From Acetivibrio alkalicellulosi (GTDB lineage Bacteria > Bacillota > Clostridia > Acetivibrionales > Acetivibrionaceae): a stretch of DNA of 64,000 nt. The notes beneath the pieces are model-generated. The model saw nothing but the letters and a program-made list of their open reading frames with translations, did no database searches and was not told the DNA's origin. The DNA lies in NCBI GenBank assembly GCA_008125075.1, contig VLTH01000002.1, positions 1,307,965 through 1,371,964 of the forward strand. Reading direction: 5' to 3'. A program made the position numbers and the translations under genes. Below, piece after piece: positions 1-52,177 of the stretch (the stretch's first letter is position 1; each line of letters begins with the position of its first letter).

Positions 1-3000
1 CACCTATTTTTATTTCAACTTCTTTCTGGCCTCTGCTAGTTAGTCTTGTTGCAAAAAACTCTACAACTCCACTTTCTACTGAAGTTCCCTTGTTTTCAAC
101 TGCTGCTCTTACACGAGTAAGTTCACCTTCATTTGGATGTACACCAATATCATAATATGCATATTTAGACTCTGTTTGTAAAGTATGAGGATCAATATCA
201 TAATAAATTCTGGCATATTCAAGCTTCTCTATTACAGAACCCATACTAAAGTCTATAGAATAACTTGCAGGGTAATAATACCTCTCTTGATTATTTAAAT
301 ATCCTTCAGGCTTTACCTGTGACATTGGTGTTTCATCTACTATGTAAATATATCCATTATTTTTCCACACATTATTTCTACTTAAACTAACCTCTTCTTC
401 ACCATCAACAATCCTTGTTACAGAGCGTATTGGAGTATCTGGCAAAGGATCTTTAAGCATTAAAACCTGATACCTTGGCATTTCTGGTTTATTTGGATCT
501 TCCTCTAGAGCTGGAACACTAAATTCTAATGTAGTTTCATTTTCACCATCTGGCTGTTTTTCAACCTTCAGACTTTGAGGCACATAAATCGGAAGCCTCA
601 TTCCAGTGTTTAAATTAATCAGATAATTTGGAAATCCTGTCTCCCCTACGTCAACAAGGCTCAAAACACCATCATCCCCACTGTCGTCTAAGAATAGATT
701 GTCTTTACCTATTATTTCAGTTGATATCCCAACTATTAAAGGATTTAATTGCACTCCCTTGTAGTCTCGGTGAGTAAGTGTTGCTCTAAAGTCACGGAAC
801 TCTCCTTCAAAAGGCTCTGCTCCCTCTTCTTCCTCATACATATCCCATCTTACTAGCCAGTATCCACTTGTACGCTGACCAGGCTCTATATTACCTAAAT
901 TAAGCCTGAATCTGTTGCCTGTATTGCTTCCAAAGGATGTCTCCAATATATTAAATTCAGTTAATAATCCCGGCTGATTTGCTGAAATACTAAGCTGTCC
1001 TGAATCTATAACAAGATTTTTTGCCTCTCCATATCCCATATTTTCAGCAACCACTCCAAGCCTGAAAGGTTGACCGGATTGAACTTTTCCTGGTATATAG
1101 TAGTTTAGCTTAATCTTTGGCTGTGGATATATTGTTATCTCCTCAGGCTGAGTCTGAGTCTCTACATAACGTCCATTTACATAGTAAGACACTATTGCTC
1201 GGGCAAGATAAACCTTACCTTCAGCCTCTTGACCTCCTAAGCCTTCACCAGGTATTAGCTGCCAAGTAGCAGTCATATTATCACCTGCTGACAGGGAATC
1301 TGCCCCATCAAGAGAAGATATCCCCGTTATCCCTGTAGGTATAATAAAGTTTTGACCTGTTACATCATTTCCCTCTTCATCAGTTATAGTAACTCTTACC
1401 TCAAGATTATCCAGAGAATTATCAGGATAACCGTTTGATACCATTAAAGTAGCATCAAATGCCTGTCTCTCAAGAGTAGCTGTCTGACCAAGTTTAAGGC
1501 TTACTATCTGATAATCTCCCCCACTACTTCCGCTATTATCTTTTCTGTCTCTAATGGGGTGAAAATAGTCATACTCAAATAAATCACCCTCTGGTATATT
1601 TACTTCTATTTCTTCCTCAGTATCTTTTATCTTTAAAACAGCAGTTCTCTCACCAGGATTATACATTGGTAGAGCTCCCATAACTTCTTTTGGCGGATAC
1701 TCAGGAAGTCCTGTATCAGAATCAAAGCTTACATATTTACCCTGTAGTATTATTGCATTATAAGGCAAACCTATATCTCTGTTAATGCCACTTTTTAAAT
1801 TGTAATAACCTGGTTGTATCATGATGCTTATTCTGGCACTTCCATGGGCTGGAATTTCACCTATATAACCTCCACCAACGATGCTTATTCCCATATCTGA
1901 AAGGTTTTCTCTAAGCACTGAAGCTGTAACATCTGTAATTGCAACAAGTCCTGTATTAATCACTTGTGCCTCAACAATTACAGTTTCATTTATCTGTTTT
2001 GCTACAGTTACCCATGGTGGTACAAATCCAAATTTCGGACGTGGAATATTTGTACCAAAGGTTAACTCCAACTCAATGTCATATTTGTCTTCGATTGTAG
2101 TAGGTACAACAGTCCATTCTATTGTAACAGGCTGTACTTCCATTATAACTTCAACTAAGGCAGCATCTCTCATAGGCATTACCTGTGCAGTACCATCTAC
2201 TCTGTTTCTACCTCGTGCTCTTATTGTATAGTCGTATTCTCCCAAAGGTGTGTTATCAAATGTAACTATTCCATTACTATTAGTTCTTCCATAATAGTTT
2301 TCATAATAGGTTACTTCTTGTCCCCTTATAACCTGTATATATGGCTCTTTCCCAACAATAGTAACTTCAGCATTTTCCACCCTTTCACCTGTTTCATCAC
2401 TTACAACAAATGATAATGATCCTCTGTTTGCACTTGAAACTTCTACACCCACAGCAACCGTGGTACTATATTTTCCATCAGTTACAACTATATTATCCTG
2501 ATATTGTCCTAACGAAGTGCCCTCTGGTGGATTTATTAAAATATCAAAGCTGGTTGACTCTCCTGGTGCTAAGTTAGTCTTTTCTAGATTAACACCTCTT
2601 ATCCAAGGTAAATCTTTAGGAGATTCTAGCCTTATGTTATCCATCCTTCCAAGACCTTTATTAGTAAGGGTAATTCTTTTTACAGCATTACCACCTGGAT
2701 TCACACCTACTTTTACTCCTTTTTGCTCAGTCACCGGCATTGGTACTGCAGGTCTTAAATGAAGCTTAATATTAGATGTATACGTTGCTCCCTGAGCACT
2801 GCTAAATATCACCTGATACTCTGCTATGTCCTCACAGTCTAGAGGTGCATTGAAGTTTAGCATTACCCCACTTTTTCCTCCTGATGTAATAACAGATGAA
2901 AGTGAAGATGTATCCATTACAGCCCTCACTCCACTTTCAGGAGTAAGATTTACCAGAACTGCACTGACTCCTGTCAGGCTATGCCCTGCATGTGCCATAT

Positions 3001-6000
3001 TTTCAACAGATATAAACCTTGAAAAACTTGAATTTTTAGAGGAAACAATTGATAAATTGGATGGTGATGCCTTCATTCCCCACACAGTAAAGTCTGTAAC
3101 AGCAACGTTTCCAACACCCATTTCATATGCAAATGCATGTACATTCCATTTTCCTGCACCTAAAGTGGTAGGAAGAAAATCCATCTCAAAGTATCCATTT
3201 TCATCTGTATTCACAAAACGAATAGTTTCAGCATGCCATATTTTCATAATCTGCTTTCCATTTATAATTGCCGGAACAGGAAATGGAAGCCTTGGCTCTA
3301 GGAATAAATTTAACACTATCCTTTCATTTGCAACAGGACTTCCATCCCTAAATCTGAACTGACCAGATATTCGAACTGTTTCCCCATGTTGGTAAGCTCT
3401 TTTATCTGTATTAACTGTTGCAACAGTCTCCTGCACCATCATAATATTACTTGAAAGAGTTATATTTTCTACTCCATCCCCTACTTCAACAGTTAATCTA
3501 TATCTACCTGATTCTAATGACATGACAGGAAGCTGTCCTTTAAAAGCACCTTCTGCAAAATCATATCCAATTTCACCATCCATAATAATTTGAGCATCTC
3601 TTCTTAATGTATAAAATGCACTTATACCATCATTTGGCCCTAGAACTCTTGAAAGATCACTTGCTTTTTTCACTATTGCCCTAATAGGTATAAAGTTATC
3701 TGTTGTTGAATATACATGTGCCATAAACTGTTCACTCTGATCATGTGGATCTGGGTTAACTTGTACAACTAATGCATCAGCAACATTAAAACTCTCTTGC
3801 CAACTTCGTCTAACTCCCTCTTTTATAGGTTGCTGAACTATCCTGTCTGCTTTGTCAACAACTATTTTGACATCTACATCTCCTGTTTTTTGAGGAATCC
3901 ATGTTAAGTCCACAATTGCAGTACTATGGCCTCTTAGCCCGGAAACTTGTTTTCTGGCTACCTGCTCTCCCTCTACATAAAGCCCAACATTAAATTGATC
4001 AAATATGGAGGTTACGCTCTGATTGCTTACCCTTGCAATAAATGTTACTGGTTCTCCATACTTTATTGACATAGGTGACCACTGCACATCAGAAATATGT
4101 AAGTCAGGATAAATCATTCTTAATTCGGGTACCTTTGCATCTACTCTGATTTCATCTTTATCTCCCGTAACAATTCCTAATGGATCAGCAATAACACTTA
4201 CCGAATGACTACCGGGCCTTGCTAACCATCTTGTCCATACTTCCCTTTCTTCTCCTGCACTAAGCCCATCTATGGTAATAGTTCTTATTCTTTCTCCATT
4301 TACTACAAAATCTACATCAAACTTGTTTATTATATCAATATCCCCTGTATTTCTTACAGTTGTTTCAAATGTCAGGGATGTACCATCTGTAAGTATTGTT
4401 TCTCGTGGCAACCAAGTTACACCAGATAGTTCAATTTGAGGATAAGTCACCCTAAACTCAGGTGTAACTACACTCATGATATTATTGTCTCTGTCAAGTT
4501 CTAATAATGAGGGATCTGGGTCGTCAACTTTAACAGTTACTTCATGTTTTCCATCTTCAGGTCTTACCACAAACATAATCTCTCTAGTTTGATCAACATC
4601 AAGTACATTTACATGCTGTTTTGCTACCCACTCACCATTTATATAAAGTGATACATAAAACCTTTCAGCTCTAGCTGTACCTATATTAGCTATAGCTGCT
4701 CTGTAACCAAAGTGGCTCTCACTGTCAATATCCACTTTATCTCCTGATGTCCATGTAATATCAACTACCTTTACATCTGGAAAATTAACCTGAGTGGTAG
4801 TTAATGGAATAGATTTTGAATTATTGCTCATATCTATTTCCTTTAGGTTGTCTAGTATATCGTTGGCTACAACTTTCACAACATGAACTCCTGGTTCTGC
4901 AATCCATGTAAAAGGTACTTGAACACTCTCCCCTGGCTCAATGCTTTCATCTACCCTTACATAACCTAAATACCTGTTGTTAATATAAAATCCTGTTAAG
5001 AACCCTTGCTTATTAGCTCCATTACCTATATTACCTATGTGTGCAGTAATTTTTACCTGATCTCCCTCATCAGGGCTAATTGGTTCCCATACAATATCAT
5101 TTACAATAAGATCTGGTCTATTGTCTAGAACTTTTACCGTTACAGCATCCTCAGATACTGCTCCATTGTTGTCTGTTACAGCAAGACTTATATTGTATTG
5201 TCCTGGAATCTGATATACATGAGTAATGATTGCACCACTTTTTATAGCACCATCACCTAAATCCCATGTGTATGATACTATTCTTCCATCAGTATCTGAA
5301 GATTCGCTTCCATCTAAAGAAAGCCTGTCTCCCGAATAAATCTGCTCACTTGTTTTGATATAAGCAGTTGGAGCTTTATTTAACCTTATTTCACTATAGA
5401 GTGTATTGTTATCTAGATCAATGTCCTCAGTTCCTGGTAATGTGTCAACTACCACCTTTATATTTACAGGACTCTCCAAGTTTTTATCTGGAATCCAGCT
5501 AATAGATGCCTCTGTAGAATTCATACTTCTTACTTCAACTATAGTACTTCCAATACTACTCCATTCATCATTATCCTGAATGTAAAAGCTCACATTACCA
5601 TGAGCCTTTGCATATGCAAGGTTTTTAATAAGTGCAGTAATTTCTCCTTCTCTTTCATAAGTAGGCAATCCTGGACTTGTACTTATTTGTGTAACTGTAA
5701 GATCACTTTTTGCTGAAGGAACACCTGAAACCTGGTTTGAGTTTTCACTCTCATTTCCTGCCATATCCACTGCTCTTACAACATAGTGATAAATCACTCC
5801 ATTCTCAAGTCCAGTATCTCTATAAACAAGGCCTTTTGTACTTTCAACTAATATAAAAGGTCCTCCACTTTCAGTTGCTCTATATAGTGCATATTTTTCC
5901 ACATCATCGCTTAAGCTTCTTTCCCATGAAAGATGAAGCTCTCCACCTGAATGAGAATCCATTACTGCAAGATTTGAAGGTGCTAATGGTATCTCTCTAT

Positions 6001-9000
6001 CAACAATATACCTTTTTATAAATGAAGTTTCATTATTTCCCTTATTTATAGCTGAGGCACGTACTGCATATGTTCCAGATGCTAGATGCGACACATCCCA
6101 TATATAAGATGAAATATAGTAGTTTTCTCCTATTCCCACTTGAGGTATGTCTCCATCCATAATAATTTCGAGAATATCCTCTAAATCCAGTGTTTCACCT
6201 TGCCTTGGTGAAATATCTTCACCTATAATATGCCATATTTCATCGCCAGTAATATTAGCATATGGAGATTCTCCAAGATAAGCATATTCATATATTAGAC
6301 TTACTCCAACTGGATCACTTATAATTGTTTCTAGTTCTAAAGTGCTGTTTGTTCTAAAAAATTCATAAGGCATCATATCAAGAATCAATGGATTAGAAGC
6401 TTGATGCAGTGATCTTATATCAATATGTTCACTTATGATTTCATCATTTGAATAGTCATAAGTACTCTCACTTTCTCTTCCTAAATCGTTAACTACTGCA
6501 ACCTTATAGAAGTATTCTATTTGAGGATCCTTCATTGTATCTATAAATACATTTGAAGTGGTGCGCTCAACTATCTTCTTCCATTCTCCGTCTCTTCCTT
6601 CTTTTCTATAGAGAACATAATAACGAAAATCAGGCCTTAGTACAGGGGACCAACTAACAACCATTTGCCATTCTCCAGCTTTTACATAGAGATACTCAGG
6701 TGGTAATGGAGGGTCATTTGTCAATGTATAAGTATGTACTTTTTCTGAATAATTTCCCGCCTCATCACTTACAACAACCCTAATCTGATATTCTCCATCT
6801 GAATAAATGTAATTCCCATCTGAATCTTTTGCAAGAGTATCCCATATAACTGTAACCTCCTGCTGTGTAGCATTATGTACTTCTCCTATAAGAGTCCACT
6901 CTTCCACATCAAGGGGTCTAAATTCAAACGAGTATAATGATACACCTTTATTGTCCCGTGCATAGGCAGATATTTCAACATTTCCTCTGATTGGAGAACC
7001 ACTTACAGGAGTAAATCTTATAATTTCAGGAGGAGTTACATCTCTTCCTGGAGTTACATTTACTATGTTTGAAGGCTCACTTTCACTTCCTAAAATATTA
7101 ACTGCCGTCACCTTATAATAACTTGCACTATCTAAAGGTGCCTTATAATCTGTATAAAAAGTACTTTGAGTTCTTGCTATTAATTCGAAACTTTCAAGCT
7201 CTTCACTGTGAATACTTCTATATATTCTAAAATGATCAAAGTTTTCAGGTATTTTTACCAACTCCCAATTAAGGGTAATACCAAGTTCAATAGGGCTCGC
7301 CTCAAGAACAGGCGTATCTGGAGGTATACTGTCAATTATGTATGATACTATAGCTTCACTGCTGTTATTTGATGTATCTGTCACCACTACTTTAACAAAG
7401 TATATGCCATCTTCAACATGTTGAGTATCCCAGTCTATTACTCCTGATGTTGTTACACCTATACTTATCCATAAGTCCTCTGTCAAATCTTTAGAGTATA
7501 AAAACTCTGTATTTTTAACTTTCACATTGTCTTTTGAAACAACATTTAACCTTACTATTTCTCCAATATAACTTCCATCCGCAGGTGTTATGCTAATTAT
7601 TTCAGGTGGTGTTGTATCAGGTAAAACAGTCACCGGCAGACTTATTATACCTTCACCCTCAACTCCAAAACTGTCTATCACTGTCACTTTATATGTATAA
7701 GTAGTTCCTTCTAAAAGGTTGGTGTCAGTATATGAAGTTGAAATCAACTGACTTATAAGTTGATATTCTTCACCATTTGCACTTTTGTAAATTCTATACC
7801 TATGGACATTTTCATCCACCTTAGACCACACAACATCAACCTTAAGTTCACCAGCAGTCACAAATATTTCTTCAGGAGTGCCTGGAATTTTAATATCTGC
7901 ACTTAAAGGTTGACTCTCTTCACTTTCATTACCTGCCTTATCATATGCTGTAACAGTATATGTATATATATTATCAGTACTAACATCTTCATCAGTATAT
8001 CTGTTTATATTAGATGATCCAATCTTTTCACCATCACGGTAAACATTATAACCTTCAACTCTTACATTATCAGTTGAGTTGTTCCATATAAGGGTAATAG
8101 ATGATTGAGTTTTTGAATTAATTCTCAAGTTTCCAGGAATAGTGGGGGGCTCAGTATCAACAGCTGCCGTTACAGTTATGCTCTCACTTTCACCCGAACG
8201 ATTTCCAGCAACATCATATGCCTCAACCGTATAAACATATGTTTCATCTGGTGTTAATCCTGTATCAGTAAAGCTTGTTTGAGTTATATTTCTAATAAAG
8301 GAACCATTTCTGTATACTCTATATCCTGATACGCCTATGTTATCAGAAGATGCTGTCCATTGTATTGTAACTGAAGTAGGTGTAACTGAAACAACTTCAA
8401 CATCTTGTGGTACTGTTGGAGGTTCATTATCATATGTTACACTACTACTTATATCAGATACATTACCTGATGCATCATAGGCTTTAACTGTATATACATA
8501 TGTTCCTGGTTGTAAGTGGCTATCTGTGTATCTGGTATTTGTTGTATCTGCTATGTGAGTATCGTTTCGCAATACTTTGTATCCTGCAACTGCAGCATTG
8601 TCTGTTGAAGCAGACCAAGACAAAGATACAGAGGTATCTGTTCTTGAGCTTATACTTAAATTTCGTGGAATTGTAGGTGGTTCATCATCAACATCAGTAG
8701 TAGCACTTATAGCTTCACTGTCATCAGAAAAGTTTCTTGAAGGATCATATGCCCTTACTGTATATGTGTATTGAGTGTTTGGTGTAAGCCCCTGATCAAT
8801 ATACCTAAGAGTCCTTGTATTACCCACTCTTATACCATTTCTATATATGTCATAGCCTTCTACCTGAACATTGTCAGTAGATTCATCCCATTCTATAGTA
8901 ATTGTAGTCAATGTCTTTCCTGTTACCCTTATATTCTCAGGTACTGTAGGCGGCTGGTGGTCTGCCACATCTTCAATTAATGTATTCCAAACAGGTATTG

Positions 9001-12000
9001 AATTAAATGAGTATCCTCCTCCATCTAAAGGCTTTGTTATTACAAGTTCATTAAATCCAGAGTCGGATGGATTTTGAAATGAAACCCATTGTAGCTGGGA
9101 ACCACTTAAAATTGATCTGTGGCTTTGTGTTGCCCTAAAATTAACTATACTTGAGTTAGTAAATGTATTTCTAATTTGTGTAAAATTCCCCCTTACCTCT
9201 AAAATCCCCGATGTAAGATATCCATTGTGATTATAACGGCTTTGAGTTACAAATTGTCCTATGATCCTTACATAATCGTTTTCATTATTCATCCTGATAT
9301 ATCCATTACTATTTCCATATGAAAAACTTCCATCGGTCTGATAATTTTTGCTTTGTATTCTATAATCACCGTCTACAAAAAGCTGGCCTCCATTTATATT
9401 TATAGTTCCTCCTGCTTGTATAAGGTTGCCACCTACTGTAAGATTATACTTGTTTAAATTAAGAGTTCCACCATGAACATAAAGGCTACCTTTAATTTCT
9501 ATATCATTTTGCAAGGTACGGTTCTCTTCAATACTTATATCATAGGGCCAAACATGCCAGTTTACCTTAGCATTTGCCCCAAGAAATAAATATTCTCCTC
9601 CCTGCACAGGAGATAATGTTTCCATTATTTCTCCTGTCACCACAGTTTTAGAAGTAAACCTTACTCCATTTTGTGAAGTATTTTTAATTTCTAAAATATT
9701 AATAGTTGAATTTGAACTTGCAGAACTTTCAAAACTTATTCTTTGAAGTGAATCTCCATTAAGTACCACCTTGTGATTATCTGTAGATCTAAAGTTGTTT
9801 TGTGCACTGTGAATTTTTTGAATAAAGTCTCCTGCAACTTCTAATATACCTTCTTTAAGATAATCTAGATGACTATATTGGCTTTGGGTTACAAAATCTC
9901 CTTCAACCCTTACAACATCATCTTCATGTGTCATCTTTAAGTATCCATTACTGTAAATATATATTTTTTCATCATTTGTTGGAATCTCAGTCTGAATTTT
10001 ATAATCACCCTTAACAATTAGCTGACCTCCATTTATGTCCATGACACCACCAGACTGTATTAAATCTCCATGAACAGTTAAAACATATCCATCTAAGTCA
10101 AGTACTCCTGCTCCAAGATACAAATTACCATCATAATCTTGGTCACTTAAAAGCTTCCATCCTGTTAACTGTTCTTCTCCAGGGAATTTTATCTTACATC
10201 CATTATCTATAAATGTACTTGCATTTAACGCCTGATTAAATTCTATGCCTTCCTCTGAATAATTTTGTATTTCAAGTATGTTAAACCTAGATTGCGGAGT
10301 TTGTATAGTTACCGTTTGTAAACTTTCACCACTTAGTATTGTCCTGTGGCTTCCTGAAGCAATAAATTCGTCTCTATTCCATCTATGCGTTCTCTGTACA
10401 AAGTCTCCCTTCACTTCTAAAACACCAGCAGTTATCCTATTATTGTTTACAAAATATGACTGAGTAATAAAATTTCCTTCAACACATATATAACCGTCTG
10501 CCTTGTCCATAAATAAGTATGCATAATCTGCGTCTCCATAAGTTATATCACCCTGATTGTTTACATTTTCTGTCTGTATCCGGTAATCTCCTTTTACAAT
10601 AAGCTCTCCACCATTTATATTCAAAGTTCCTCTTGAATGTATTAGATTGCCTTTTATAGTCAGTTTTTTCTCGTTTAAATTAAATGTTCCGTTACGTATG
10701 TAAAAATTCCCTTCTATCGCCATATCATTTTGCATGGTGCGATTATCCTCTATACTCAAATCATATGGCCATATCTCCCAATTTACCTCTGCATTTACTC
10801 CCAGGTATAAATTCTTTCCTCCTGTAATAGGGGTTGATGTTTCTTTTATTTCTCCATTTACTACTACCTTTGATGTAAACTCTATTCCGCCTTCGGAGGT
10901 GTTTGTAATTTCAAGTATGTTTATAACTGAATTTGAACTAACAGAATTCTGAAAATTTACTTTTTGCATATTTTCTCCGCTTAATACCACCTTGTGATTA
11001 CTAGTAGGCCTAAAATTATTCTGTGCACTATGGATTCTATGGGTAAAGTCTCCTAAAACCTCCAACACACCTTCTGTAAGATAACTATTATGACTATGTT
11101 GACTGTGGGTTATAAAGTCTCCTTCTACTTTTACATATGCACCTTCTTCTGTCATTTTTAAATACCCATTACTATGTATGTAACTTTTATTTCCCTCTAC
11201 ATCTTCTATTTCTGTCTGAAGTCTGTAATCTCCTTCTATGTGAAGCTTTCCTCCATTTACATCCACTGTTCCTCCAGACTGTATTAAGTTACCATTTATT
11301 ATTAGTTGGTATCCATTTAAGTCTAGTACTCCTCCTCCAAGGTAAAGATCTCCATTATATACTTGATCACCTGTCAAACTCCATCCAACAATTTCTGAAC
11401 GAGGAAATATCACTATACACCCATTGTCTATAAAGACATTTGCATTTAGCGATTGAACAAATTCTACTCCTTCATCTGAATAATTTTTTATTTCAAGTAT
11501 GTTAAATCTGGATATTTGCGTTTCTAAACTGACTGTTTGCAAACCATTTCCACTTATTATAGTCCTGTGACTTCCAGTAGCAGTAAAATCATCTCTACCC
11601 CATCTATGTGTCAATTGGACAAAATCTCCTTTTACTTCTAGTATCCCCCCAGTTATCCTATTATTATTTGTATAACATGCCTGCATTATAAAATTTCCTT
11701 CAACACATATGTAGTCATCTACATTATCCATAATTAAATATGCATATTCTGCACCTACATAAGTTATATCTCCCTGATTATTTGTATTTTCTCTCTGGGT
11801 TCGGAAGTCTCCATTTACAATTAGTTCTCCACCATTTATGCTCAAAGTTCCTCTTGCGTGTATCAAGTTTCCTTCCACTATCAGCTTGTAGCCATTTAAA
11901 TTAAGTGATCCATTATCAATATATAAATCTCCAAAAACTGTGTCTTCAAATAAAGCAGTTGGAGAATTAATTACTGTTTTTTCCCTTGGTGTAGTAACAT

Positions 12001-12790
12001 ATAATTCATTGCTAGGCTCTGAGATACTTCCTTCTATATCTACTGCCTTTATGGTAAATATATAATGTGTATAAGGTGAAAGATTTTCTATTATACATGA
12101 TGTATACATAGCATCAACTGTTTTAATTAGAGAATTGTCTTCATAAATATTATAATAACTTATATCTTCATTATCTGAACCTTCTGTCCACTCTAATTCT
12201 ACTTTTGTACTGGTCTTTGATTTCAATACAAGATTTTGTGGTGCTAAAGGAGTTAAAACATCTTCTTCAGTTAGCATTTCATTGTCTTCTATTAGTTCTT
12301 CTGTTTCCTCTGACACCTCAGTAAAATCTTCTTCAGCTCCTGATTCTACCAACTCATCTTCAAAGTCAATCCCTTCTAAAGCATCTAATTTCATACCTTC
12401 TTGACCACTGATGTTCTCGTCTTTTAATCCATCTATTTCTATACTTTCACGATCATTTATGTGCTTATTTTCTAAATCCATGTCTTCTTCTATTATTAGT
12501 TCAAATACATCATCATAGACATATGCCTCTTTTGCTATATCCCCATGACCATCGGCGTACTCATCTTTTGTACTCCCATTGTCATTTATTACTTCTTCTA
12601 AGTTATGGTCATAGAGTTTCTCCTTTTCACCCACATATTCATGTTCATCATCATAAAATTGTTGATTTTTATTGATCATTTCTCCTACTGAAGCATCAGC
12701 AAGAACATATGAATTCTGATAAGAAAAACTCATGGTCAGACACATAACTATAACCATTATAAATGCCACGTACCTATTAAAAATACTCAC
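1..12790 (-). CDS. Giant secreted multi-domain surface protein, 5' part only (more than 4260 aa in window; the C-terminus lies beyond the window start). Order of parts: signal peptide, acidic region, FN3 domain, at least 5 right-handed beta-helix modules, then a long array of FN3/Ig-like domains.
   Basis: Uninterrupted minus-strand reading frame from a GTG at 12790 to position 1. My hand translation of both ends finds no stops. The six-frame track shows only short plus-strand ORFs here, which is consistent with a single partial ORF running off the window. An RBS-like AAAGGGGTG lies 7 nt upstream of the GTG. The N-terminus MSIFNRYVAFIMVIVMCLTMSF...VLADA looks like a signal peptide. The translated segment GDLYIDNGSLNLNGYKLIVEGNLIHARGTLSINGGELIVNG is typical of a parallel beta-helix. 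Further 3' along the minus strand, units of about 270-275 nt recur, each encoding the FN3-like signature AYD...GN.S. Confidence 0.8.
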   Translation of the reverse strand, partial: MSIFNRYVAFIMVIVMCLTMSFSYQNSYVLADASVGEMINKNQQFYDDEHEYVGEKEKLYDHNLEEVINDNGSTKDEYADGHGDIAKEAYVYDDVFELIIEEDMDLENKHINDRESIEIDGLKDENISGQEGMKLDALEGIDFEDELVESGAEEDFTEVSEETEELIEDNEMLTEEDVLTPLAPQNLVLKSKTSTKVELEWTEGSDNEDISYYNIYEDNSLIKTVDAMYTSCIIENLSPYTHYIFTIKAVDIEGSISEPSNELYVTTPREKTVINSPTALFEDTVFGDLYIDNGSLNLNGYKLIVEGNLIHARGTLSINGGELIVNGDFRTQRENTNNQGDITYVGAEYAYLIMDNVDDYICVEGNFIMQACYTNNNRITGGILEVKGDFVQLTHRWGRDDFTATGSHRTIISGNGLQTVSLETQISRFNILEIKNYSDEGVEFVQSLNANVFIDNGCIVIFPRSEIVGWSLTGDQVYNGDLYLGGGVLDLNGYQLIINGNLIQSGGTVDVNGGKLHIEGDYRLQTEIEDVEGNKSYIHSNGYLKMTEEGAYVKVEGDFITHSQHSHNSYLTEGVLEVLGDFTHRIHSAQNNFRPTSNHKVVLSGENMQKVNFQNSVSSNSVINILEITNTSEGGIEFTSKVVVNGEIKETSTPITGGKNLYLGVNAEVNWEIWPYDLSIEDNRTMQNDMAIEGNFYIRNGTFNLNEKKLTIKGNLIHSRGTLNINGGELIVKGDYRIQTENVNNQGDITYGDADYAYLFMDKADGYICVEGNFITQSYFVNNNRITAGVLEVKGDFVQRTHRWNRDEFIASGSHRTILSGESLQTVTIQTPQSRFNILEIQNYSEEGIEFNQALNASTFIDNGCKIKFPGEEQLTGWKLLSDQDYDGNLYLGAGVLDLDGYVLTVHGDLIQSGGVMDINGGQLIVKGDYKIQTEIPTNDEKIYIYSNGYLKMTHEDDVVRVEGDFVTQSQYSHLDYLKEGILEVAGDFIQKIHSAQNNFRSTDNHKVVLNGDSLQRISFESSASSNSTINILEIKNTSQNGVRFTSKTVVTGEIMETLSPVQGGEYLFLGANAKVNWHVWPYDISIEENRTLQNDIEIKGSLYVHGGTLNLNKYNLTVGGNLIQAGGTININGGQLFVDGDYRIQSKNYQTDGSFSYGNSNGYIRMNNENDYVRIIGQFVTQSRYNHNGYLTSGILEVRGNFTQIRNTFTNSSIVNFRATQSHRSILSGSQLQWVSFQNPSDSGFNELVITKPLDGGGYSFNSIPVWNTLIEDVADHQPPTVPENIRVTGKTLTTITIEWDESTDNVQVEGYDIYRNGIRVGNTRTLRYIDQGLTPNTQYTYTVRAYDPSRNFSDDSEAISATTDVDDEPPTIPRNLSISSRTDTSVSLSWSASTDNAAVAGYKVLRNDTHIADTTNTRYTDSHLQPGTYVYTVKAYDASGNVSDISSSVTYDNEPPTVPQDVEVVSVTPTSVTIQWTASSDNIGVSGYRVYRNGSFIRNITQTSFTDTGLTPDETYVYTVEAYDVAGNRSGESESITVTAAVDTEPPTIPGNLRINSKTQSSITLIWNNSTDNVRVEGYNVYRDGEKIGSSNINRYTDEDVSTDNIYTYTVTAYDKAGNESEESQPLSADIKIPGTPEEIFVTAGELKVDVVWSKVDENVHRYRIYKSANGEEYQLISQLISTSYTDTNLLEGTTYTYKVTVIDSFGVEGEGIISLPVTVLPDTTPPEIISITPADGSYIGEIVRLNVVSKDNVKVKNTEFLYSKDLTEDLWISIGVTTSGVIDWDTQHVEDGIYFVKVVVTDTSNNSSEAIVSYIIDSIPPDTPVLEASPIELGITLNWELVKIPENFDHFRIYRSIHSEELESFELIARTQSTFYTDYKAPLDSASYYKVTAVNILGSESEPSNIVNVTPGRDVTPPEIIRFTPVSGSPIRGNVEISAYARDNKGVSLYSFEFRPLDVEEWTLIGEVHNATQQEVTVIWDTLAKDSDGNYIYSDGEYQIRVVVSDEAGNYSEKVHTYTLTNDPPLPPEYLYVKAGEWQMVVSWSPVLRPDFRYYVLYRKEGRDGEWKKIVERTTSNVFIDTMKDPQIEYFYKVAVVNDLGRESESTYDYSNDEIISEHIDIRSLHQASNPLILDMMPYEFFRTNSTLELETIISDPVGVSLIYEYAYLGESPYANITGDEIWHIIGEDISPRQGETLDLEDILEIIMDGDIPQVGIGENYYISSYIWDVSHLASGTYAVRASAINKGNNETSFIKRYIVDREIPLAPSNLAVMDSHSGGELHLSWERSLSDDVEKYALYRATESGGPFILVESTKGLVYRDTGLENGVIYHYVVRAVDMAGNESENSNQVSGVPSAKSDLTVTQISTSPGLPTYEREGEITALIKNLAYAKAHGNVSFYIQDNDEWSSIGSTIVEVRSMNSTEASISWIPDKNLESPVNIKVVVDTLPGTEDIDLDNNTLYSEIRLNKAPTAYIKTSEQIYSGDRLSLDGSESSDTDGRIVSYTWDLGDGAIKSGAIITHVYQIPGQYNISLAVTDNNGAVSEDAVTVKVLDNRPDLIVNDIVWEPISPDEGDQVKITAHIGNIGNGANKQGFLTGFYINNRYLGYVRVDESIEPGESVQVPFTWIAEPGVHVVKVVANDILDNLKEIDMSNNSKSIPLTTTQVNFPDVKVVDITWTSGDKVDIDSESHFGYRAAIANIGTARAERFYVSLYINGEWVAKQHVNVLDVDQTREIMFVVRPEDGKHEVTVKVDDPDPSLLELDRDNNIMSVVTPEFRVTYPQIELSGVTWLPRETILTDGTSLTFETTVRNTGDIDIINKFDVDFVVNGERIRTITIDGLSAGEEREVWTRWLARPGSHSVSVIADPLGIVTGDKDEIRVDAKVPELRMIYPDLHISDVQWSPMSIKYGEPVTFIARVSNQSVTSIFDQFNVGLYVEGEQVARKQVSGLRGHSTAIVDLTWIPQKTGDVDVKIVVDKADRIVQQPIKEGVRRSWQESFNVADALVVQVNPDPHDQSEQFMAHVYSTTDNFIPIRAIVKKASDLSRVLGPNDGISAFYTLRRDAQIIMDGEIGYDFAEGAFKGQLPVMSLESGRYRLTVEVGDGVENITLSSNIMMVQETVATVNTDKRAYQHGETVRISGQFRFRDGSPVANERIVLNLFLEPRLPFPVPAIINGKQIMKIWHAETIRFVNTDENGYFEMDFLPTTLGAGKWNVHAFAYEMGVGNVAVTDFTVWGMKASPSNLSIVSSKNSSFSRFISVENMAHAGHSLTGVSAVLVNLTPESGVRAVMDTSSLSSVITSGGKSGVMLNFNAPLDCEDIAEYQVIFSSAQGATYTSNIKLHLRPAVPMPVTEQKGVKVGVNPGGNAVKRITLTNKGLGRMDNIRLESPKDLPWIRGVNLEKTNLAPGESTSFDILINPPEGTSLGQYQDNIVVTDGKYSTTVAVGVEVSSANRGSLSFVVSDETGERVENAEVTIVGKEPYIQVIRGQEVTYYENYYGRTNSNGIVTFDNTPLGEYDYTIRARGRNRVDGTAQVMPMRDAALVEVIMEVQPVTIEWTVVPTTIEDKYDIELELTFGTNIPRPKFGFVPPWVTVAKQINETVIVEAQVINTGLVAITDVTASVLRENLSDMGISIVGGGYIGEIPAHGSARISIMIQPGYYNLKSGINRDIGLPYNAIILQGKYVSFDSDTGLPEYPPKEVMGALPMYNPGERTAVLKIKDTEEEIEVNIPEGDLFEYDYFHPIRDRKDNSGSSGGDYQIVSLKLGQTATLERQAFDATLMVSNGYPDNSLDNLEVRVTITDEEGNDVTGQNFIIPTGITGISSLDGADSLSAGDNMTATWQLIPGEGLGGQEAEGKVYLARAIVSYYVNGRYVETQTQPEEITIYPQPKIKLNYYIPGKVQSGQPFRLGVVAENMGYGEAKNLVIDSGQLSISANQPGLLTEFNILETSFGSNTGNRFRLNLGNIEPGQRTSGYWLVRWDMYEEEEGAEPFEGEFRDFRATLTHRDYKGVQLNPLIVGISTEIIGKDNLFLDDSGDDGVLSLVDVGETGFPNYLINLNTGMRLPIYVPQSLKVEKQPDGENETTLEFSVPALEEDPNKPEMPRYQVLMLKDPLPDTPIRSVTRIVDGEEEVSLSRNNVWKNNGYIYIVDETPMSQVKPEGYLNNQERYYYPASYSIDFSMGSVIEKLEYARIYYDIDPHTLQTESKYAYYDIGVHPNEGELTRVRAAVENKGTSVESGVVEFFATRLTSRGQKEVEIKIG
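9150..11950 (-). repeat. Tandem intragenic repeat of alternating A/B modules, each about 600 bp (a super-repeat of about 1.2 kb, at least 2.5 copies). These encode the beta-helix modules of the giant protein.
   Basis: Near-identical stretches recur at about 9190, 9830, 10400, 11045 and 11620. For example, 11617-11700 resembles 10396-10480, and 11041-11130 resembles 9826-9915. A-type and B-type copies alternate. Confidence 0.75.
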
Positions 12791-12861
12791 AAATACACCC
12801 CTTTTTTTACCCACATAAAAATTAAACTCTGTTATTATTATTTAAGTAAGAATGGAAGATT

Positions 12862-12990
12862 GAATATATACTATTCTTCTCAAAAAGTTCTTTTTACTAA
12901 ACTTTTATACATTAAGTCTTATAGCTTAAGTTTCATAAGACTCTTTTTGAGAAAATGTAGTTCCTCTGTTTATTGCATCGAACTTACTAA
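12862..12990 (-). repeat. R4-c: a diverged copy of the roughly 120-bp R4 repeat in reverse orientation. It carries an inserted AAGTCTT...AAGACT hairpin and sits 70-200 bp upstream of the giant gene.
   Basis: 12856-12880 is identical to the reverse complement of the R4 end (tatatactattcttctcaaaaagtt). The internal block tagttcctctgtttat is conserved. Overall identity to the reverse complement of R4-a is about 70%, and there is an insertion of about 35 bp. Confidence 0.55.
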
Positions 12991-13353
12991 CTTGATTTGA
13001 GCTTACGCTGAGAAATGTATATGAGTTCATCAAATAATTAAATACTCTACTACGTAATTTCAAAACGGCTTAACAGCTTATGCAGGATATTAAATAATTT
13101 TTATTTAATTAACATTATGTATAATTATATAATTAACCACCTCTAAAATCAACTTATATTGTTTAAGAATTTAAGAAAGGTGTATTTAATATATGTGAAG
13201 AAAAATATTCCAGAAACTTAAGTTTCCCAGTCTAGAGCCAGTAAATACTCCTGGAGGCGGAGCAAGTTAGCCTTTAACATAAAAAAGTGTTTAAGTAACT
13301 TTTTGAGTTGACAAAGGGACGAAGGTGTTAACTATCGTCCCTTTGTTAAAATT

Positions 13354-13419
13354 CTTGGAACAAAGTGAAAGACTTAAAATCGAAGGGGCTCGATGCCCCG
13401 TAAATATTTCAGACATTCC
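13354..13419 (+). repeat. R1-A element (two hairpins ending in GGGGCTCGATGCCCC) fused to a right-end fragment of the R2 element (gtaaatatttcagacattcc). It probably also acts as the terminator of the binding-lipoprotein gene.
   Basis: The sequence cttggaacaaagtgaaagacttaaaatcgaaggggctcgatgcccc is shared with copies at 25633, 53585 and 48803 (the last in reverse). The final 20 nt match the right inverted repeat of R2 copies at 18162-18181 and 62275-62294. Confidence 0.7.
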
Positions 13420-15078
13420 TTAATTAAAAGGTATATACCATTTTGAATAATCCTCATATTTATTCCATATACTTGGATTTAATTCTCCTCGTATCTTCCT
13501 ATTAAATAAAGCGGCATCGTTATAAAAGTATAACCCCAAATATGGTACATCTTGGTTTATTAATCTTCTCATATTTATAAAATATGATTTCTTCCTTGAA
13601 AAGTTATTTTCCTTTAGAATAAGATCAAGATACATGTCAACCCCTTCTCTTTCGTAACCTGCTATATTAAAACCTCCTATTTCTTTTGAAGAATACATAA
13701 AAGAAATATCGGCTACTGAAGTTATTGTACATCCAATTAAAACCATGTCGAATTTACCCGAGCTAATCCTTTGATTCATTTCATCCCACGTAACCTCATC
13801 TATTTCTATTTCTATTCCTATTTCTTTTAGCTGATTTTTTATCTCATGAGCAACTTTTATTCGAGTACTGTTATCATTGTTTACCAGTAGCTCAAGCTTT
13901 AGAGGTTTATTAGCCCAACCAATTTTCTTATGAAGCACACCCTGATTGTTTTCTTCCCATCCACTTTCTAAAATAAGTTCTCTTGCCTTATTTATATTTA
14001 CTTCTTTAGAAATGATATTGGTATCATAAATCCATGTGTCAGGTATTACTGGCATCTCTGAAGCTATAGCTTCACCTGGCATAATATTATTTATTAATTT
14101 ATCTCTGTCAACAGTATAAGCTATTGCATTTCTTATTTCACTCTCTTGTAAAATACTATTGGAAAGATTAAAGGCAATAAACTCAAACTTATTACTAGGA
14201 TATTTTTTCAGTGCAATGTCTGATCTGCCAATGTACCTTATCCAAGCTGATCTATCCATATGAATTATGTCAACCTCTTTAGATTGAAAGGCATCACCAA
14301 TTGACATATTCCTTGGAAATATTTTTATAACAATTTGAGAGATATAGGGAAGGTTAATTTCATTTTCCCCTTCTCCCTCACCTCTCCACCAATTTTCATT
14401 TTTTATAAGCTTAATATGCTTATTTGCCTCATACTCTGAAAACTTATAAGGGCCAGTTCCCACTGGTCTGTTATTCCTATCCGTTGTAAGTATCTCTTCT
14501 TCGTAAAAATAGTGTTTAGGGATAATTGGAAATGACAGAAGCTCCGGAGTAAAAGAGTTAGGACTGTTTAGTTCCACTTTAAATGTCATATTGTCAACTA
14601 CTGAAAAAGCACTTATATTTTTAAGATTGATTCTATAGTGACTATTAACAGAACTACTAAGTATTACATTAAAAGTAAACTCCACATCTTCCGATGTAAA
14701 AGGTATATTATCATGCCAGTAAACATTTTCTCTTAAATAAAAAGTCCATTGAAGACCATCATCAGAAACTTCCCAACTTCTAGCAAGTAAAGGAACTGGC
14801 TTTTGTCTTCTGTCTATCTCTACGAGACTCTCAAATATAAATTCCGAATAATCTTTAACATAGGCATTTTTTGTCAGTAAAGGATTGAGTGTATCTGGCT
14901 GGGTAGAAAAAAGATTTAACACTCCACCTTCTTCAGGTCCTCTATCTATAACATCATCTAGAATATAATTTAATGGCATATTCTCTTCATCAGGTTCTTC
15001 TTCATAAATATATAATTCACAGGATGAAATAAATATACTAAATATTATTAATATGATTATAACTATAGTTTTTTTCAA
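13420..15078 (-). CDS. ABC-transporter substrate-binding lipoprotein, family 5 (oligopeptide/dipeptide-binding, OppA/DppA-like). It is an orphan: no permease or ATPase genes lie next to it.
   Basis: 552-aa ORF. The lipoprotein signal MKKTIVIIILIIFSIFISSC ends in a lipobox cysteine. Size and sequence character fit cluster-5 solute-binding proteins. I recognise the family from the translation. Confidence 0.75.
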   Translation of the reverse strand: MKKTIVIIILIIFSIFISSCELYIYEEEPDEENMPLNYILDDVIDRGPEEGGVLNLFSTQPDTLNPLLTKNAYVKDYSEFIFESLVEIDRRQKPVPLLARSWEVSDDGLQWTFYLRENVYWHDNIPFTSEDVEFTFNVILSSSVNSHYRINLKNISAFSVVDNMTFKVELNSPNSFTPELLSFPIIPKHYFYEEEILTTDRNNRPVGTGPYKFSEYEANKHIKLIKNENWWRGEGEGENEINLPYISQIVIKIFPRNMSIGDAFQSKEVDIIHMDRSAWIRYIGRSDIALKKYPSNKFEFIAFNLSNSILQESEIRNAIAYTVDRDKLINNIMPGEAIASEMPVIPDTWIYDTNIISKEVNINKARELILESGWEENNQGVLHKKIGWANKPLKLELLVNNDNSTRIKVAHEIKNQLKEIGIEIEIDEVTWDEMNQRISSGKFDMVLIGCTITSVADISFMYSSKEIGGFNIAGYEREGVDMYLDLILKENNFSRKKSYFINMRRLINQDVPYLGLYFYNDAALFNRKIRGELNPSIWNKYEDYSKWYIPFN

Positions 15079-25250: not shown

Positions 25251-25449
25251 GGGTGCATATTATTTAAGTGAAGAAAAATATGGAAGAAACATTGTAAAGC
25301 AATTAGTAGAGCCTGTTAATGCGACGAGGAAAGGGAGAGCATTGTTTGAGCGAAGCGAGTTTTGCTCGATGCCGAGGAGTATTTACAGGCTCTAAACTGC
25401 GAAACTTTAGTTTCTGGAATATTTTTCTTCACATTTGTTACATGCACCC
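25251..25449 (+). repeat. R3-a: a 199-bp MITE-like element with roughly 30-bp terminal inverted repeats (GGGTGCAT..TTTAAGTGAAGAAAAATAT). Its interior holds an R1-like core (gagcgaagcgag...gctcgatgcc).
   Basis: The left end gggtgcatattatttaagtgaagaaaaatat matches the reverse complement of the right end gaatatttttcttcacatttgttacatgcaccc. Fragments of the left end recur at 52674, 55143, 58585, 62163 and 12826/13180. Confidence 0.75.
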
Positions 25450-25632: not shown

Positions 25633-25696
25633 GAAGTCTTGGAACGAAAGTGAAAGACTTAAAAGCGAAGGGGCTCGATGCCCCAAGCTTTTATTT
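25633..25696 (+). repeat. R1-B element (hairpin 1 aagtctt/aagactt; hairpin 2 ggggctcgatgcccc; T-tract). Terminator-like on both strands.
   Basis: gaagtcttggaacgaaagtgaaagacttaaaagcgaaggggctcgatgccccaagcttttattt. It lies between the 3' end of the giant ATPase gene and the promoter region of the GGDEF-EAL gene. Confidence 0.7.
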
Positions 25697-25853: not shown

Positions 25854-28800
25854 CTATTTTTTCCCTTGGGATATACGTTCAACAAATTTTTGAACCCCAT
25901 TTGAGTGCATATCTTTTAACTCAGTCATTATCTCAACAAGGTTTTCAAGTTCTTTCTTTTCTACACCTTTTGCAAGCACCTCTTTTATGTTTTCCAACAT
26001 TAGTACTGCCTGCCCTACTTTATCATCACCTTTAACAAGCTTGTTTTTATTGAAAAATACTTTAATCTCTTCCCATCTAACTTTTTCCTCTTCATTGAGA
26101 CAACCCACAAGTTCCTTCCATTTAAGCATATTTGCTTCTGCACCAGTAGTAAGTGTTTGTGAATCATTTTCATATGCAGAGATAACAAGTTCATTTACTT
26201 CGTCGTCGTTCATAACAGCTACTATTTTCTCGGCTATTTTGTTCATATTTCTGTATGAACCTTGAAGTTTAAATGGAGGTTCTGTCCTGTACTCATCAGC
26301 CTGTGCTGCCGAACGTATATATTCCATATTTATCTTTAAAACTACGTCTCTTACCTTAATAAGCTTTTTAAATACATCTGTAAACTCATTAATTTCTTCA
26401 ATAGAGTAATTCCCCTCAAAATTCATATCTTCCATATGAGAACCTTGAGCTATTTCTATTAATGAGTAAATATCCTTTCTACTCCTATTTGAAAGCTTGC
26501 TTAGAACTGGATTAGATGTTAAGCTGTTCTCAATAAAGCTTAAAATAAAGGCATCATTATTCTCTCTTGTCATATCCCCAAGATTGTATACATCTGCTCT
26601 ATTTGAAAGCATATCTGGAATTTGAAATTTATCTCCACTTTCAGTATAAGGATTTCCAGCCATTACAACAGCAACTTTTTTACCTCTTAAATCATAACTT
26701 TGACCAACACCTTTATAAACCCCTTCTATTTTTCTCTGTCCATCACAAAGAGGTATAAACTTTTGCAAAAATTCTGGATTACAGTGCTGAATATCGTCAA
26801 CATATATCATTATGTTATTACCCATCTTAAATGCTAAATTAAGCTTTCTAAGCTCCTCTTTAGCACTTGCATTTTTTGCGCTTTCAGGGTCTAAAGAAGT
26901 AACTTCATGTCCTAGTGCCGGCCCATTTATTTTTATCAGTGTAATTCCAAGTCTGTTTGCAACATACTCCATCAACGTAGTTTTACCATAACCTGGAGGT
27001 GAAATCAAAAGAAGCATTCCCATTAAGTCAGTACGCTTGTTTTCTCCGGCTACACCTATTTGCTTTGCCAAATTATGCCCTATAAGAGGCAAGTAAACTT
27101 TGTCAATAAGTTGACTTCGAACAAATGACGATAATACTCCAGTTTTAAACTCATCCATCCTAAGCTCATCTTTACATTCTTGAATAAGCTTTTTCTTTAA
27201 TTCTTGGAAATTTATATAATCCGGTACTGCACCCTTTTCAAAGCTCTGTAGCTTTTTCATAAACTCTGTATATGATAAAATATACTCTCCATTTTTTATA
27301 ATTGGGTGACTTCCACTCAAGTCTTTAATTGTCAGCGATGTCTTTGTCTGTATTAAATTTCTTGCATCATAGCCATTTAAAATGAACATAACCGCAACTT
27401 CATCTACTAAACCCCTGACATTATCAAATTCTCTATCAACTAAAAATGCCATCAACCATTCTCGTATTAAATAGTATAAACCTTCTAAATCTTTGACTGA
27501 GGCTTTAAGCGAATCTGTAAAAAGATCATATGCATTTTTATCTTTCAAATCATCTAAAAACTCAAAATACAAATCATGGGCTTCCATACTAATTACAAAA
27601 GAATTCCCACGCATTAATTCCATACATAGGTACTCGGAAGCTTCGCTAATAAGTCCAACCTCAAAAAATGTCATGCTACAAAGTGATTGCTCCATAGATT
27701 TTTTTACTAAAGGCAAATAATCACTTAAATTAGGTTTTCTATTAAAATATAGAGAAACTTTTGACAATTCTTTTAGCCTTATTTCAAATTTTTCTTTCAT
27801 TTCATCACTAGCAAAGCGCTTCCAGAAAAGCTGTGCAAACGCCCTAGCTGATGGACTGTAAATTAAAAGATCAATATCTACATGTAGTTTTATTAGTTCT
27901 TTTAAAATAATAAGGCAGTCCATATCATGAACACCTTTTGTATAACTCTCTTGATACCTAGGCTCCATAAACTTTTGTATGAATTCTAGAAGCTCTTGAT
28001 CTGAATATCTTTGTAAGCTTTCGATATTTTTGTTTTCTGCTTCAAATATTTTATAAGTAAGATATTCTCCCCTGTAAACTTCTTTGTTTTCAGATAAAAC
28101 TTCCTGATCCCAGCTGGCACGATATTTGTTAATCTCTTGGGATGTAACTCTTTCCCAAAAATCAGTACCTGAAATATGAAAGTAAAAACCATCATCTTTT
28201 TTTACCATTGAAAGATCAAGTGGTTTTGTATTAACGGAAAATAAATTATTCCCAAACTTCACAACATTCTTACCACCAACAAAAAGCTCCTGTTTATCCT
28301 TAAGCTGGCGTATTGCATCTTCCCTAACTGTTTTTAATCTAGACTGTATTTCATCTGACTTAACTGTATCGTTAAGAGAAATAAGCTGACTTGCAATATC
28401 TCTTACCTTTTCAATCATAATGTCAGATGCAAAATAACCATTAATCTCTTCTATTTCATTAAAACTGTTTAGTCTGTTTCCAATTCCCTTAAGAAGTCTA
28501 TCGGCTGCCGACATAAGAGCAGTAATCTTTTTGTTTTGCCTATCTAATATTGATTGTTTTTTTGTTTCAAATGCATTGTAAAGCTCTTCTCTTTTTTCAG
28601 TCAGATCTACTATATACTCTTCAAAATCCGCAAACTTTCCCTCTAACTCTTCAATCTGAACTATTACCTTATTTAAATACTCGTCACATTTATCAACTGA
28701 GTCAGAAATATCAAGATAATTAACTACAGCATGGTTTAATAGCTTCATTTGTGAATGAAACTGTGCAGACCCCTCTGTTTTTAAAAGATCGTCCATGCAT

Positions 28801-33037: not shown

Positions 33038-33038
33038 T

Positions 33039-33665: not shown

Positions 33666-34017
33666 AATTATCTCCCCTGTTTCTAACCTCATTTTAGTAT
33701 ATACTATTTTTTCTTATAAAAGTATTAAAACATAAAACTATATTTAATAAAAAAACAGTATATATCATCAAAGCTTCATTAATAGAAATCTTTAATTATT
33801 CTCTGCAATTGAATACAGCAAATCACTTATTGGATATTCAATATTTTTAGGTAGTGCTTCATAAAAACCAAACAAACAACAATGGATCAAGTGTCATTTG
33901 ATTTAAGGCATCCTTTTTGAAATGACTTAGTTTTAGTGTAACACATTAAAAAAAATATATCTCAATTTACTTGATTTGTCAATACTTTTTGATAATTTTA
34001 CATTAGTTTTAATAAAA

Positions 34018-50083: not shown

Positions 50084-52177
<2,094 letters not shown>

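Follow-up and report, generated by a model that had tools for sequence, protein, structure and literature searches.

A partially visible giant gene of Acetivibrio alkalicellulosi probably encodes a fibrillar-adhesin-type surface protein with diverged N-terminal beta-helix modules

The left end of a 64,000-nucleotide (nt) stretch of Acetivibrio alkalicellulosi DNA (contig VLTH01000002.1, positions 1,307,965 to 1,371,964; this whole stretch is called the window below) is taken up by the 5' part of a single, very large gene on the minus strand. We consider it probable that this gene is intact and encodes a giant, Sec-exported and very acidic surface protein of the fibrillar-adhesin type, with a head of beta-helix modules at its N-terminus. 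An earlier note on this DNA had described a giant secreted multidomain protein in which N-terminal beta-helix modules are followed by an Ig/FN3-type stalk, a description supported by both the reading frame and the domain map.

In a six-frame translation of positions 1-13400, one minus-strand frame is stop-free from 12841 to base 2, i.e. over 4280 codons, while the remaining two each shut within about 50 codons. The best start in this frame is the GTG at 12790; an alternative in-frame GTG at 12814 lacks a ribosome-binding site. From GTG 12790, 4263 codons contain zero stops within the window, so that the gene exits the window at its left edge. This agrees with the single frame over the first 12.8 kb, running past the edge, of the earlier note; the stop or frameshift that its hand translation might have missed does not occur in the visible part. 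The visible 4263 residues have a mass of 474 kDa and an isoelectric point (pI) of 4.5. Counting residues from GTG 12790, a Pfam scan, a self-alignment and a module alignment gave the following map:

2..12790, minus strand: 4263 codons of the incomplete giant coding sequence, from the N-terminus through about 55-60% of the protein length; continues past base 1
12796..12801, minus strand: ribosome-binding site GGGGTG, 5 nt ahead of GTG 12790, from direct reading of the sequence
12692..12790, minus strand: signal-peptide-like N-terminus, residues 1-33 (MSIFNRYVAFIMVIVMCLTMSFSYQNSYVLA, followed by DA), from sequence inspection
12251..12691, minus strand: acidic low-complexity linker, residues 34-180, 35% D+E, pI 4.05
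11996..12244, minus strand: first FN3 domain, residues 183-265, Pfam fn3, E 3e-12
11330..11944, minus strand: beta-helix module A1, residues 283-487
10712..11329, minus strand: beta-helix module B1, residues 488-693
10109..10711, minus strand: beta-helix module A2, residues 694-894, 66-71% identical to A1
9491..10108, minus strand: beta-helix module B2, residues 895-1100, 62-63% identical to B1
8951..9490, minus strand: beta-helix module A3, residues 1101-1280, shorter, 41-49% identical to the other modules
7871..8950, minus strand: four canonical FN3 domains of about 89 residues each, residues 1281-1640, four Pfam fn3 stretches, mutual identity 39-50%
5681..7870, minus strand: array of FN3-like and Ig-like (Big) domains, residues 1641-2370, period about 190-200 residues, copies 25-34% identical
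3791..5680, minus strand: CARDB-like domain, PKD and four CARDB domains, residues 2371-3000, five Pfam CARDB stretches, E 4e-48
within it, minus strand: CARDB-like domain at about residues 2371-2470
5105-5356, minus strand: PKD domain, residues 2479-2562, Pfam PKD_4, E 1e-20
within 3791..5680, minus strand: four CARDB domains, residues 2560-2995
2114..3790, minus strand: MG2-like, NPCBM_assoc-like and CarboxypepD_reg-like beta-sandwiches, residues 3001-3559, all below Pfam cut-offs
2..2113, minus strand: conserved family core of 704 residues without a Pfam or NCBIfam match, residues 3560-4263, including a module at residues 3760-4155

The N-terminus has a hydrophobic core followed by VLA/DA, an AXA-like site, and a signal-peptide-like beginning of this kind is shared by a paralogue (P0126) and by three metagenome relatives (L014-L016). 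By inspection this resembles the signal peptide of the earlier note, and the Pfam match at residues 183-265 bears out the FN3 domain placed behind it. Likewise, the alternating A/B modules, of which at least five had been proposed, are found as five modules of about 200 residues each in the order A1-B1-A2-B2-A3 (residues 283-1280). Between residues 1281 and 3560, Pfam recognizes 7 FN3 and 5 CARDB domains, PKD, Big_13 and other Ig-like matches, which together form a repeated beta-sandwich stalk. The long FN3 array of the earlier note is therefore only part of the picture: seven Pfam FN3 domains and Ig-like copies are indeed present, but the array ends near residue 2370, covering just the middle third of the visible protein, and the last 1,900 or so visible residues consist of CARDB, PKD and other beta-sandwich domains and, as their final part, the 704 residues unmatched in Pfam.

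An AlphaFold2 model of A1+B1, built from a 54-sequence alignment, consists of a continuous run of short strands and has a predicted local distance difference test score (pLDDT) of 94.1 and a predicted template modelling score (pTM) of 0.89, so the module fold is, as modelled, a beta-helix (beta-solenoid). Its structural neighbours are headed by tapirin C-terminal domains (scores 14.2, 12.8 and 11.4), along with Candida Awp adhesins (12.8), the autotransporter passengers of IgA1 protease and Hbp (about 12), SRRP (10.9), Pertactin (10.7) and pectate-lyase-like proteins including Cthe_2159 (about 10), with each alignment spanning roughly one module. The choice between a pectate-lyase-like and an adhesin-like helix, which the earlier note had left to fold prediction, thus falls by a modest margin, and on the modelled fold alone, on the adhesin-like side. 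Cthe_2159, a polysaccharide-lyase-like beta-helix of A. thermocellus (PDB 4phb), and the pectate lyases differ from the adhesins in their lower structural score, and the modules have no sequence-family match to them.

It is nevertheless conceivable that the modules are catalytic (a polysaccharide lyase, glycosidase or depolymerase of the pectate-lyase-like superfamily) and that the remainder of the protein is their spacer and anchor. Of the 115 homologous proteins that we found for the beta-helix module, about 19 carry type I dockerins, and dockerins in cellulosomes mostly mark enzymes. We consider such a surface-displayed enzyme unlikely, however. The top structural neighbours are adhesins; Pfam (E up to 10) and NCBIfam contain no lyase, hydrolase or Beta_helix family matching the beta-helix region, and PDB chains searched with the modules, by sequence and by profile, gave no match. 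Moreover, short modules of about 200 residues occurring in 2-9 tandem copies are unusual for catalytic domains, and the conserved columns are mainly Gly, hydrophobic and Asn/Asp turn residues. Two database labels were considered and rejected: an NCBIfam match to 'exoglucanase CbhB' (375 bits against a cut-off of 1950) involves only the FN3 linker region of CbhB, and a bactofilin identity finds no backing, as PF04519 gave no Pfam match even at E up to 10 and is precomputed in just 1 of the 115 homologues. Annotation pipelines at times label homologues of the module bactofilin-like.

Apart from dockerins, the 115 homologues contain FN3 domains (about 15) and, in a few cases, SLH or LRR domains, and the beta-helix module itself is present in 2-9 tandem copies. 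Judging by these architectures, it is a mobile extracellular module. A. thermocellus YS has the best homologue, at 62% identity: an incomplete 'fibronectin type III domain protein' encoded at the end of a contig, with a leucyl-tRNA-synthetase-like gene upstream of it. Several others come from cable bacteria.

The top structural neighbours, the tapirins of Caldicellulosiruptor, are beta-helix proteins that sit on the cell surface and bind cellulose (bioRxiv 10.1101/359786). Like the window protein in our reading of it, they (PDB 6n2c, 6n2b and 4wa0) are surface proteins of cellulolytic Firmicutes, and their beta-helix is the cellulose-binding surface. They differ in sequence, with 9-11% identity over 130-144 aligned residues, and in architecture, since the window protein has five shorter modules in tandem and a giant stalk; sequence homology of the modules to the tapirin C-terminal domain was not found. 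A G-[DN]-[FY] motif that recurs on three consecutive rungs in the module alignment is a lead only towards cellulose binding by an aromatic ladder on one helix face, as in tapirins. A link to type IV pili, as in tapirins, was also considered and dropped: there is only an isolated pilM about 22 kb away, with unrelated genes between. Its product shares a 90% cluster with the PilM of Herbivorax sp. ANBcel31.

The modules had further been taken for near-identical tandem DNA repeats that recently expanded and contracted by recombination, making the protein phase- or size-variable. What holds of this is the super-repeat of about 1.2 kb. The sole DNA self-match pairs 9354-10707 with 10575-11928 at an offset of 1221 bp and corresponds to A2B2 versus A1B1, with an identity of 72% for the DNA and 65% for the protein. 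At the protein level, A1 and A2 are 66-71% identical, B1 and B2 62-63%, and A and B modules 32-45%, within an overall range of 25-71% for the repeats in the self-alignment, while the FN3 copies (30-50% identical in protein) yield no DNA self-match. Counting modules by self-alignment thus confirms the A/B geometry and the number of five, but 72% DNA identity takes the place of near-identity. Comparison of A1B1 with A2B2 by the Nei-Gojobori method gave a synonymous divergence (dS) of 1.16, a nonsynonymous divergence (dN) of 0.23 and hence a dN/dS of about 0.2. The 72% DNA identity, the saturated synonymous divergence and the low dN/dS together indicate an old duplication maintained by purifying selection rather than a recent expansion. 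Tandem Repeats Finder reported zero repeats on positions 1-13500, and a seed-based search for near-identical repeats found none. The gene and its upstream region are also free of simple-sequence repeats and of homopolymers of at least 8 A/T or more than 6 G/C, the only homopolymer runs being two of six G or C. As the repeats have diverged and such tracts are absent, the substrate for frequent recombination or for slipped-strand phase variation is missing.

These data bear directly on a comparison with Periscope proteins such as SasG, Aap, Rib and SraP (PMC9704523), size- or phase-variable adhesins in which near-identical repeats recombine often, so that module number varies among strains and subpopulations. 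The resemblance is real in so far as Periscope proteins are single-chain, monomeric rods of tandem domains at the cell surface, with a functional N-terminal region, and as the beta-helix modules are arranged in tandem and vary in number among homologues, with 5 in the window protein, 3 in P0126 and 8-9 in L014-L016. However, what defines Periscope proteins is a high identity of their tandem repeats, together with strain-to-strain variation in repeat number. The first of these features is absent here, where identity between repeats is 72% at the DNA level and 30-70% at the protein level. The proteins that differ in module count are at most 59% identical to the window protein, which means that the count differences record old events. 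Relatives more than 71% identical were found neither in genome contigs (best 71%) nor in metagenome contigs (at most 59%). We therefore regard a Periscope-type protein as highly improbable, and the gene should not be catalogued as a repeat-driven, size-variable locus.

For the part of the gene beyond base 1, its relatives provide a guide. The last 400 residues of the window protein match 12 loci in genome contigs, including an Oscillospiraceae metagenome-assembled genome (MAG; 71% identity), Pseudobacteroides cellulosolvens (three loci), an Acetivibrio MAG and a Thermincola MAG, and at most of these loci the frame is open over the whole 21-kb locus, corresponding to more than 7,000 residues with both ends cut. 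Colinear with the window protein are locus L001 (60.5% identity over 3021 residues), L003 (51%) and L002 (47%), as well as P0126 (TYQ18185.1; 59% over 3023 residues), a complete 6,894-residue 'PKD domain-containing protein' of A. alkalicellulosi, which is a paralogue as it comes from the same organism. The opening of P0126 matches that of the window protein in its signal peptide, acidic linker, beta-helix modules and FN3 array. Queried with the last 704 residues, an exhaustive HMMER search returned 2,139 relatives, 1,675 of them at E<1e-10, among which full-length giants measure 6,170-7,798 residues; word-indexed protein searches with the core had given 3 and 7 matches only, making the exhaustive search of representatives necessary. 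From this colinearity we infer a length of about 7,000-7,700 residues for the whole window protein.

The giants annotated as 'PKD/CARDB/APHP domain-containing proteins' (TYQ18185.1; KNY26204.1 / WP_242857068.1) are true homologues: over about 3,000 residues they are colinear with the window protein, 47-60% identical to it and alike in domain order; TYQ18185.1 differs in having 3 beta-helix modules, the C-terminal tails differ among these giants, and the Pseudobacteroides clade has an additional ComEC-like metallo-beta-lactamase segment. The gene and its relatives are thus already in public databases under generic names, as PKD-, CARDB- or APHP-domain proteins, while a search of the literature for such a giant with FN3, CARDB and SLH domains in Acetivibrio or C. 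thermocellum turned up nothing specific and no paper describing these proteins. Beyond the point at which the window ends, L001 continues with a repeated PKD-CARDB-CarboxypepD_reg super-module, followed by about 1,800 residues without Pfam matches and by a tail of FN3 and HYR domains, with SLH domains at the very end. P0126 has a tail of InlB-B-type repeats, recognized by eye from the sequence, and L014 one of Flg_new/InlB-B repeats, recognized by Pfam. L014-L016 come from metagenome contigs and are complete proteins of about 3,850 residues with a signal peptide, an acidic linker, 8-9 beta-helix modules and an FN3/PKD stalk, repeating the head-stalk-tail plan of the giant protein at half the size. 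The ComEC-like segment lies inside the giant open reading frame (ORF) of L002 (residues about 5980-6379), L003, L004 and L005, carries the motif THPDSDH and matches Pfam Lactamase_B at E 5e-8; BLAST found no match to it in L001 or P0126.

Some of these loci raise the question of whether several genes, or one decayed gene, might be read as a single gene in the window too. In Pseudobacteroides cellulosolvens ATCC 35603, L005 begins without a start codon and terminates early, at '...GWKYNKGDGSPIRKSIRNTLLIYL' and a stop where L002 continues, and L009 is just 1139 residues long; both may be frameshifts, pseudogenes or assembly errors in paralogues of the giant gene. The assembly from which the window derives is itself flagged UNVERIFIED_CONTAM in NCBI names. 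Against this stand 12.8 kb without a stop at 35% G+C, where random frames shut within about 50 codons, the colinearity of the frame with several independent relatives, and the purifying selection on the repeats. A pseudogene or an assembly artefact is, on this evidence, hardly credible as an account of the gene, and for the visible part very unlikely.

An intact surface protein with a head, a stalk and, in relatives, a C-terminal wall-binding tail has the layout of Gram-positive fibrillar adhesins, and it is this layout that leads us to a fibrillar-adhesin-like reading. Fibrillar adhesins typically have an N-terminal adhesive domain and a C-terminal anchor, for which SLH is among the recognized types (PMC8286594). 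Shared features (PMC8286594, PMC9210967) are the presumably secreted single chain, the putative N-terminal head, the repeated stalk of FN3, Ig-like, PKD and CARDB-type domains and the C-terminal wall anchor, which is here seen in relatives only; SLH is on the anchor list of Monzon, Lafita and Bateman, who defined the class. The window protein differs in being several times larger (4263 residues visible, 6,200-7,800 in relatives), in a head that is a beta-helix module outside every Pfam family and in a stalk that includes a conserved module unmatched in Pfam. As for the adhesive domain itself, the N-terminal modules have adhesin-like structural neighbours, but no match to a known adhesive-domain family.

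In this protein the C-terminus would hold the chain at the cell wall, and the stalk of FN3, Ig-like, CARDB, PKD and other beta-sandwich domains would carry the beta-helix head some 100-200 nm off the cell; by analogy with the colinear relatives, the stalk would run for another 2,600-3,400 residues or so before reaching a cell-wall-associating tail. The five-module head would be the putative working end, binding a ligand outside the cell, most probably a polysaccharide of plant cell walls, for instance cellulose, or else another cell. The earlier note had proposed an adhesin or polysaccharide-binding role, and by analogy this is still the most plausible function, given that the nearest solved folds are adhesins with tapirins at the top and that the closest relative has C-terminal SLH domains; the beta-helix head probably binds a polysaccharide or another surface. 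The dN/dS of about 0.2 between the duplicated modules speaks for a functional protein, and the cellulolytic host and a GH11-CBM6-CBM6-CBM2 xylanase in the same window are in keeping with such a role.

Several observations weigh against this interpretation. A Foldseek search of the PDB produced nothing significant (best E 0.12), even if the list consists mostly of beta-helix proteins, and the tapirin resemblance is confined to the fold, with 130-145 residues aligned at 9-11% identity. As Electrothrix and Desulfobacter, which are not cellulolytic, have the beta-helix module as well, a cellulose-specific role does not follow from it. Finally, the signal peptide was judged by eye, and the C-terminus of the window protein lies outside the window, with the two nearest relatives, at about 60% identity each, differing in their tails.

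Another conceivable reading is a structural protein of the envelope or matrix, i.e. a giant component of an S-layer, sheath or biofilm matrix that serves cell-cell cohesion or envelope architecture instead of adhesion to a substrate. The closest relative has SLH domains, the extreme acidity (pI 4.5) is expected of wall-associated proteins in an alkaliphile, the core module is common to many smaller surface proteins with DUF11, SdrD_B or cadherin-like domains, and the beta-helix module is also found in filamentous cable bacteria. The polarity of head, stalk and anchor, however, suits an adhesin better than a lattice protein, and self-assembly is without support. We thus hold an envelope or matrix protein to be improbable, although, as far as sequence data alone can tell, it cannot be separated from an adhesin.

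A. alkalicellulosi also possesses SLH-anchored scaffoldins (ScaB2, ScaC, ScaD and ScaF1; PMC6780208), which resemble the window protein in being large, secreted and, if its closest relative is taken as a guide, SLH-anchored in the same organism. Unlike these, the window protein has no cohesin or dockerin in its visible 4263 residues, nor is there one in the downstream parts of relatives L001 and L005, and the gene is not mentioned in the cellulosome survey (PMC6780208). Judged on the visible residues, the giant protein therefore is not a cellulosome component and stands outside the cohesin-dockerin network. It is tempting to go further and to regard the beta-helix module as a new, widespread polysaccharide (cellulose) binding family common to dockerin-bearing and giant wall-anchored proteins, with the Acetivibrio and Pseudobacteroides giants acting as fibrous tethers from wall to cellulose, a non-cellulosomal mode of adhesion beside the cellulosome; in this full form, we think the idea quite unlikely to be correct.

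The last 733 residues of the window protein show nothing significant in Pfam (E up to 10) or NCBIfam. Within the family core, the conserved module at residues 3760-4155 (query residues 201-595 of the last 704; window 326-1513, minus strand) contains two conserved beta-sandwich domains across residues 3760-4020, and its near-invariant residues are Q, ER, F, W, P, Y, N-x-G-x-G-x-A, W, G-x-F and H. In surface proteins 800-2,500 residues long that contain DUF11, SdrD_B, Big_9 or cadherin-like domains, its relatives often come straight behind the signal peptide; Pfam covers the module neither there nor in the window protein. With 1,675 relatives at E<1e-10, it would merit definition as a family.

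Few proteins are as long as about 7,000 residues, and this family has been conserved among the clostridia that produce cellulosomes. The interest of the gene lies in its size, in this conservation and in two conserved building blocks that have neither a Pfam family nor a solved structure: the beta-helix module, with its 115 homologues, many of them dockerin-bearing, and the module at residues 3760-4155. Both are clean targets for domain annotation and structural work. If the head does bind plant polysaccharide, the protein would represent a substrate-attachment device independent of the cellulosome, relevant to the colonization of biomass.

Upstream of the giant gene, a 630-bp intergenic region separates it from an SBP_bac_5 gene and contains two further features:

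13124..13152, minus strand: promoter-like TTGATT-17-TATAAT, about 335 nt upstream of the start, a consensus match only (10 of 12 positions)
13385..13399, minus strand: terminator-like hairpin behind the upstream SBP_bac_5 gene and within a dispersed repeat, parting the SBP_bac_5 gene from the giant gene

Promoter-like sites are no commoner in this region than in shuffled sequence, and a search of it against Rfam gave no match above threshold. The hairpin, GGGGC-ATCGA-GCCCC, is the putative terminator of the upstream gene and is carried by one of at least three short dispersed repeats in the intergenic region (12864-12889, 13193-13252 and 13353-13399), copies of which occur with 89-100% identity in other intergenic regions of the window (52579-52604, 61916-61940, 25375-25434, 25637-25684, 53590-53633 and 48822-48847). 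These repeats are probably what the earlier note called R4, and its placement of an R4 repeat just upstream of the gene is right in so far as short dispersed repeats do occur there. In the 5' leader, at about 12880-12950 on the minus strand, we noticed by eye that TCTCAAAAAG ... CTTTTTGAGA form an inverted repeat, which shares part of its sequence with the 26-nt dispersed repeat.

A. alkalicellulosi is an alkaliphilic, cellulosome-producing and cellulolytic clostridium (PMC6780208), and the cellulolytic host assumed in the earlier note is hence correct. The xylanase mentioned above, a GH11 enzyme with two CBM6 and one CBM2 domains, is encoded at 50084-52165 on the minus strand and coincides with a local G+C peak of 0.39 against about 0.31. 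At 25854-30821 (minus strand), a 1655-residue protein joins DUF3686 ('ATPase involved in DNA repair'), DUF7902 and an AAA domain; adjoining it at 30965-33692 (minus strand) are a 690-residue protein, labelled YqiK-like in the source but without a Pfam match, and a 217-residue ORF without matches. The neighbours of the giant gene are ordinary chromosomal genes, for a solute-binding protein, a laccase-like oxidoreductase, an aldo-keto reductase, a chemoreceptor and a GGDEF-EAL protein, and proteins of neighbouring genes in the same contig are deposited as TYQ15583.1 (Cloal_2054), TYQ15585.1, TYQ15589.1, TYQ15594.1 and TYQ15615.1.

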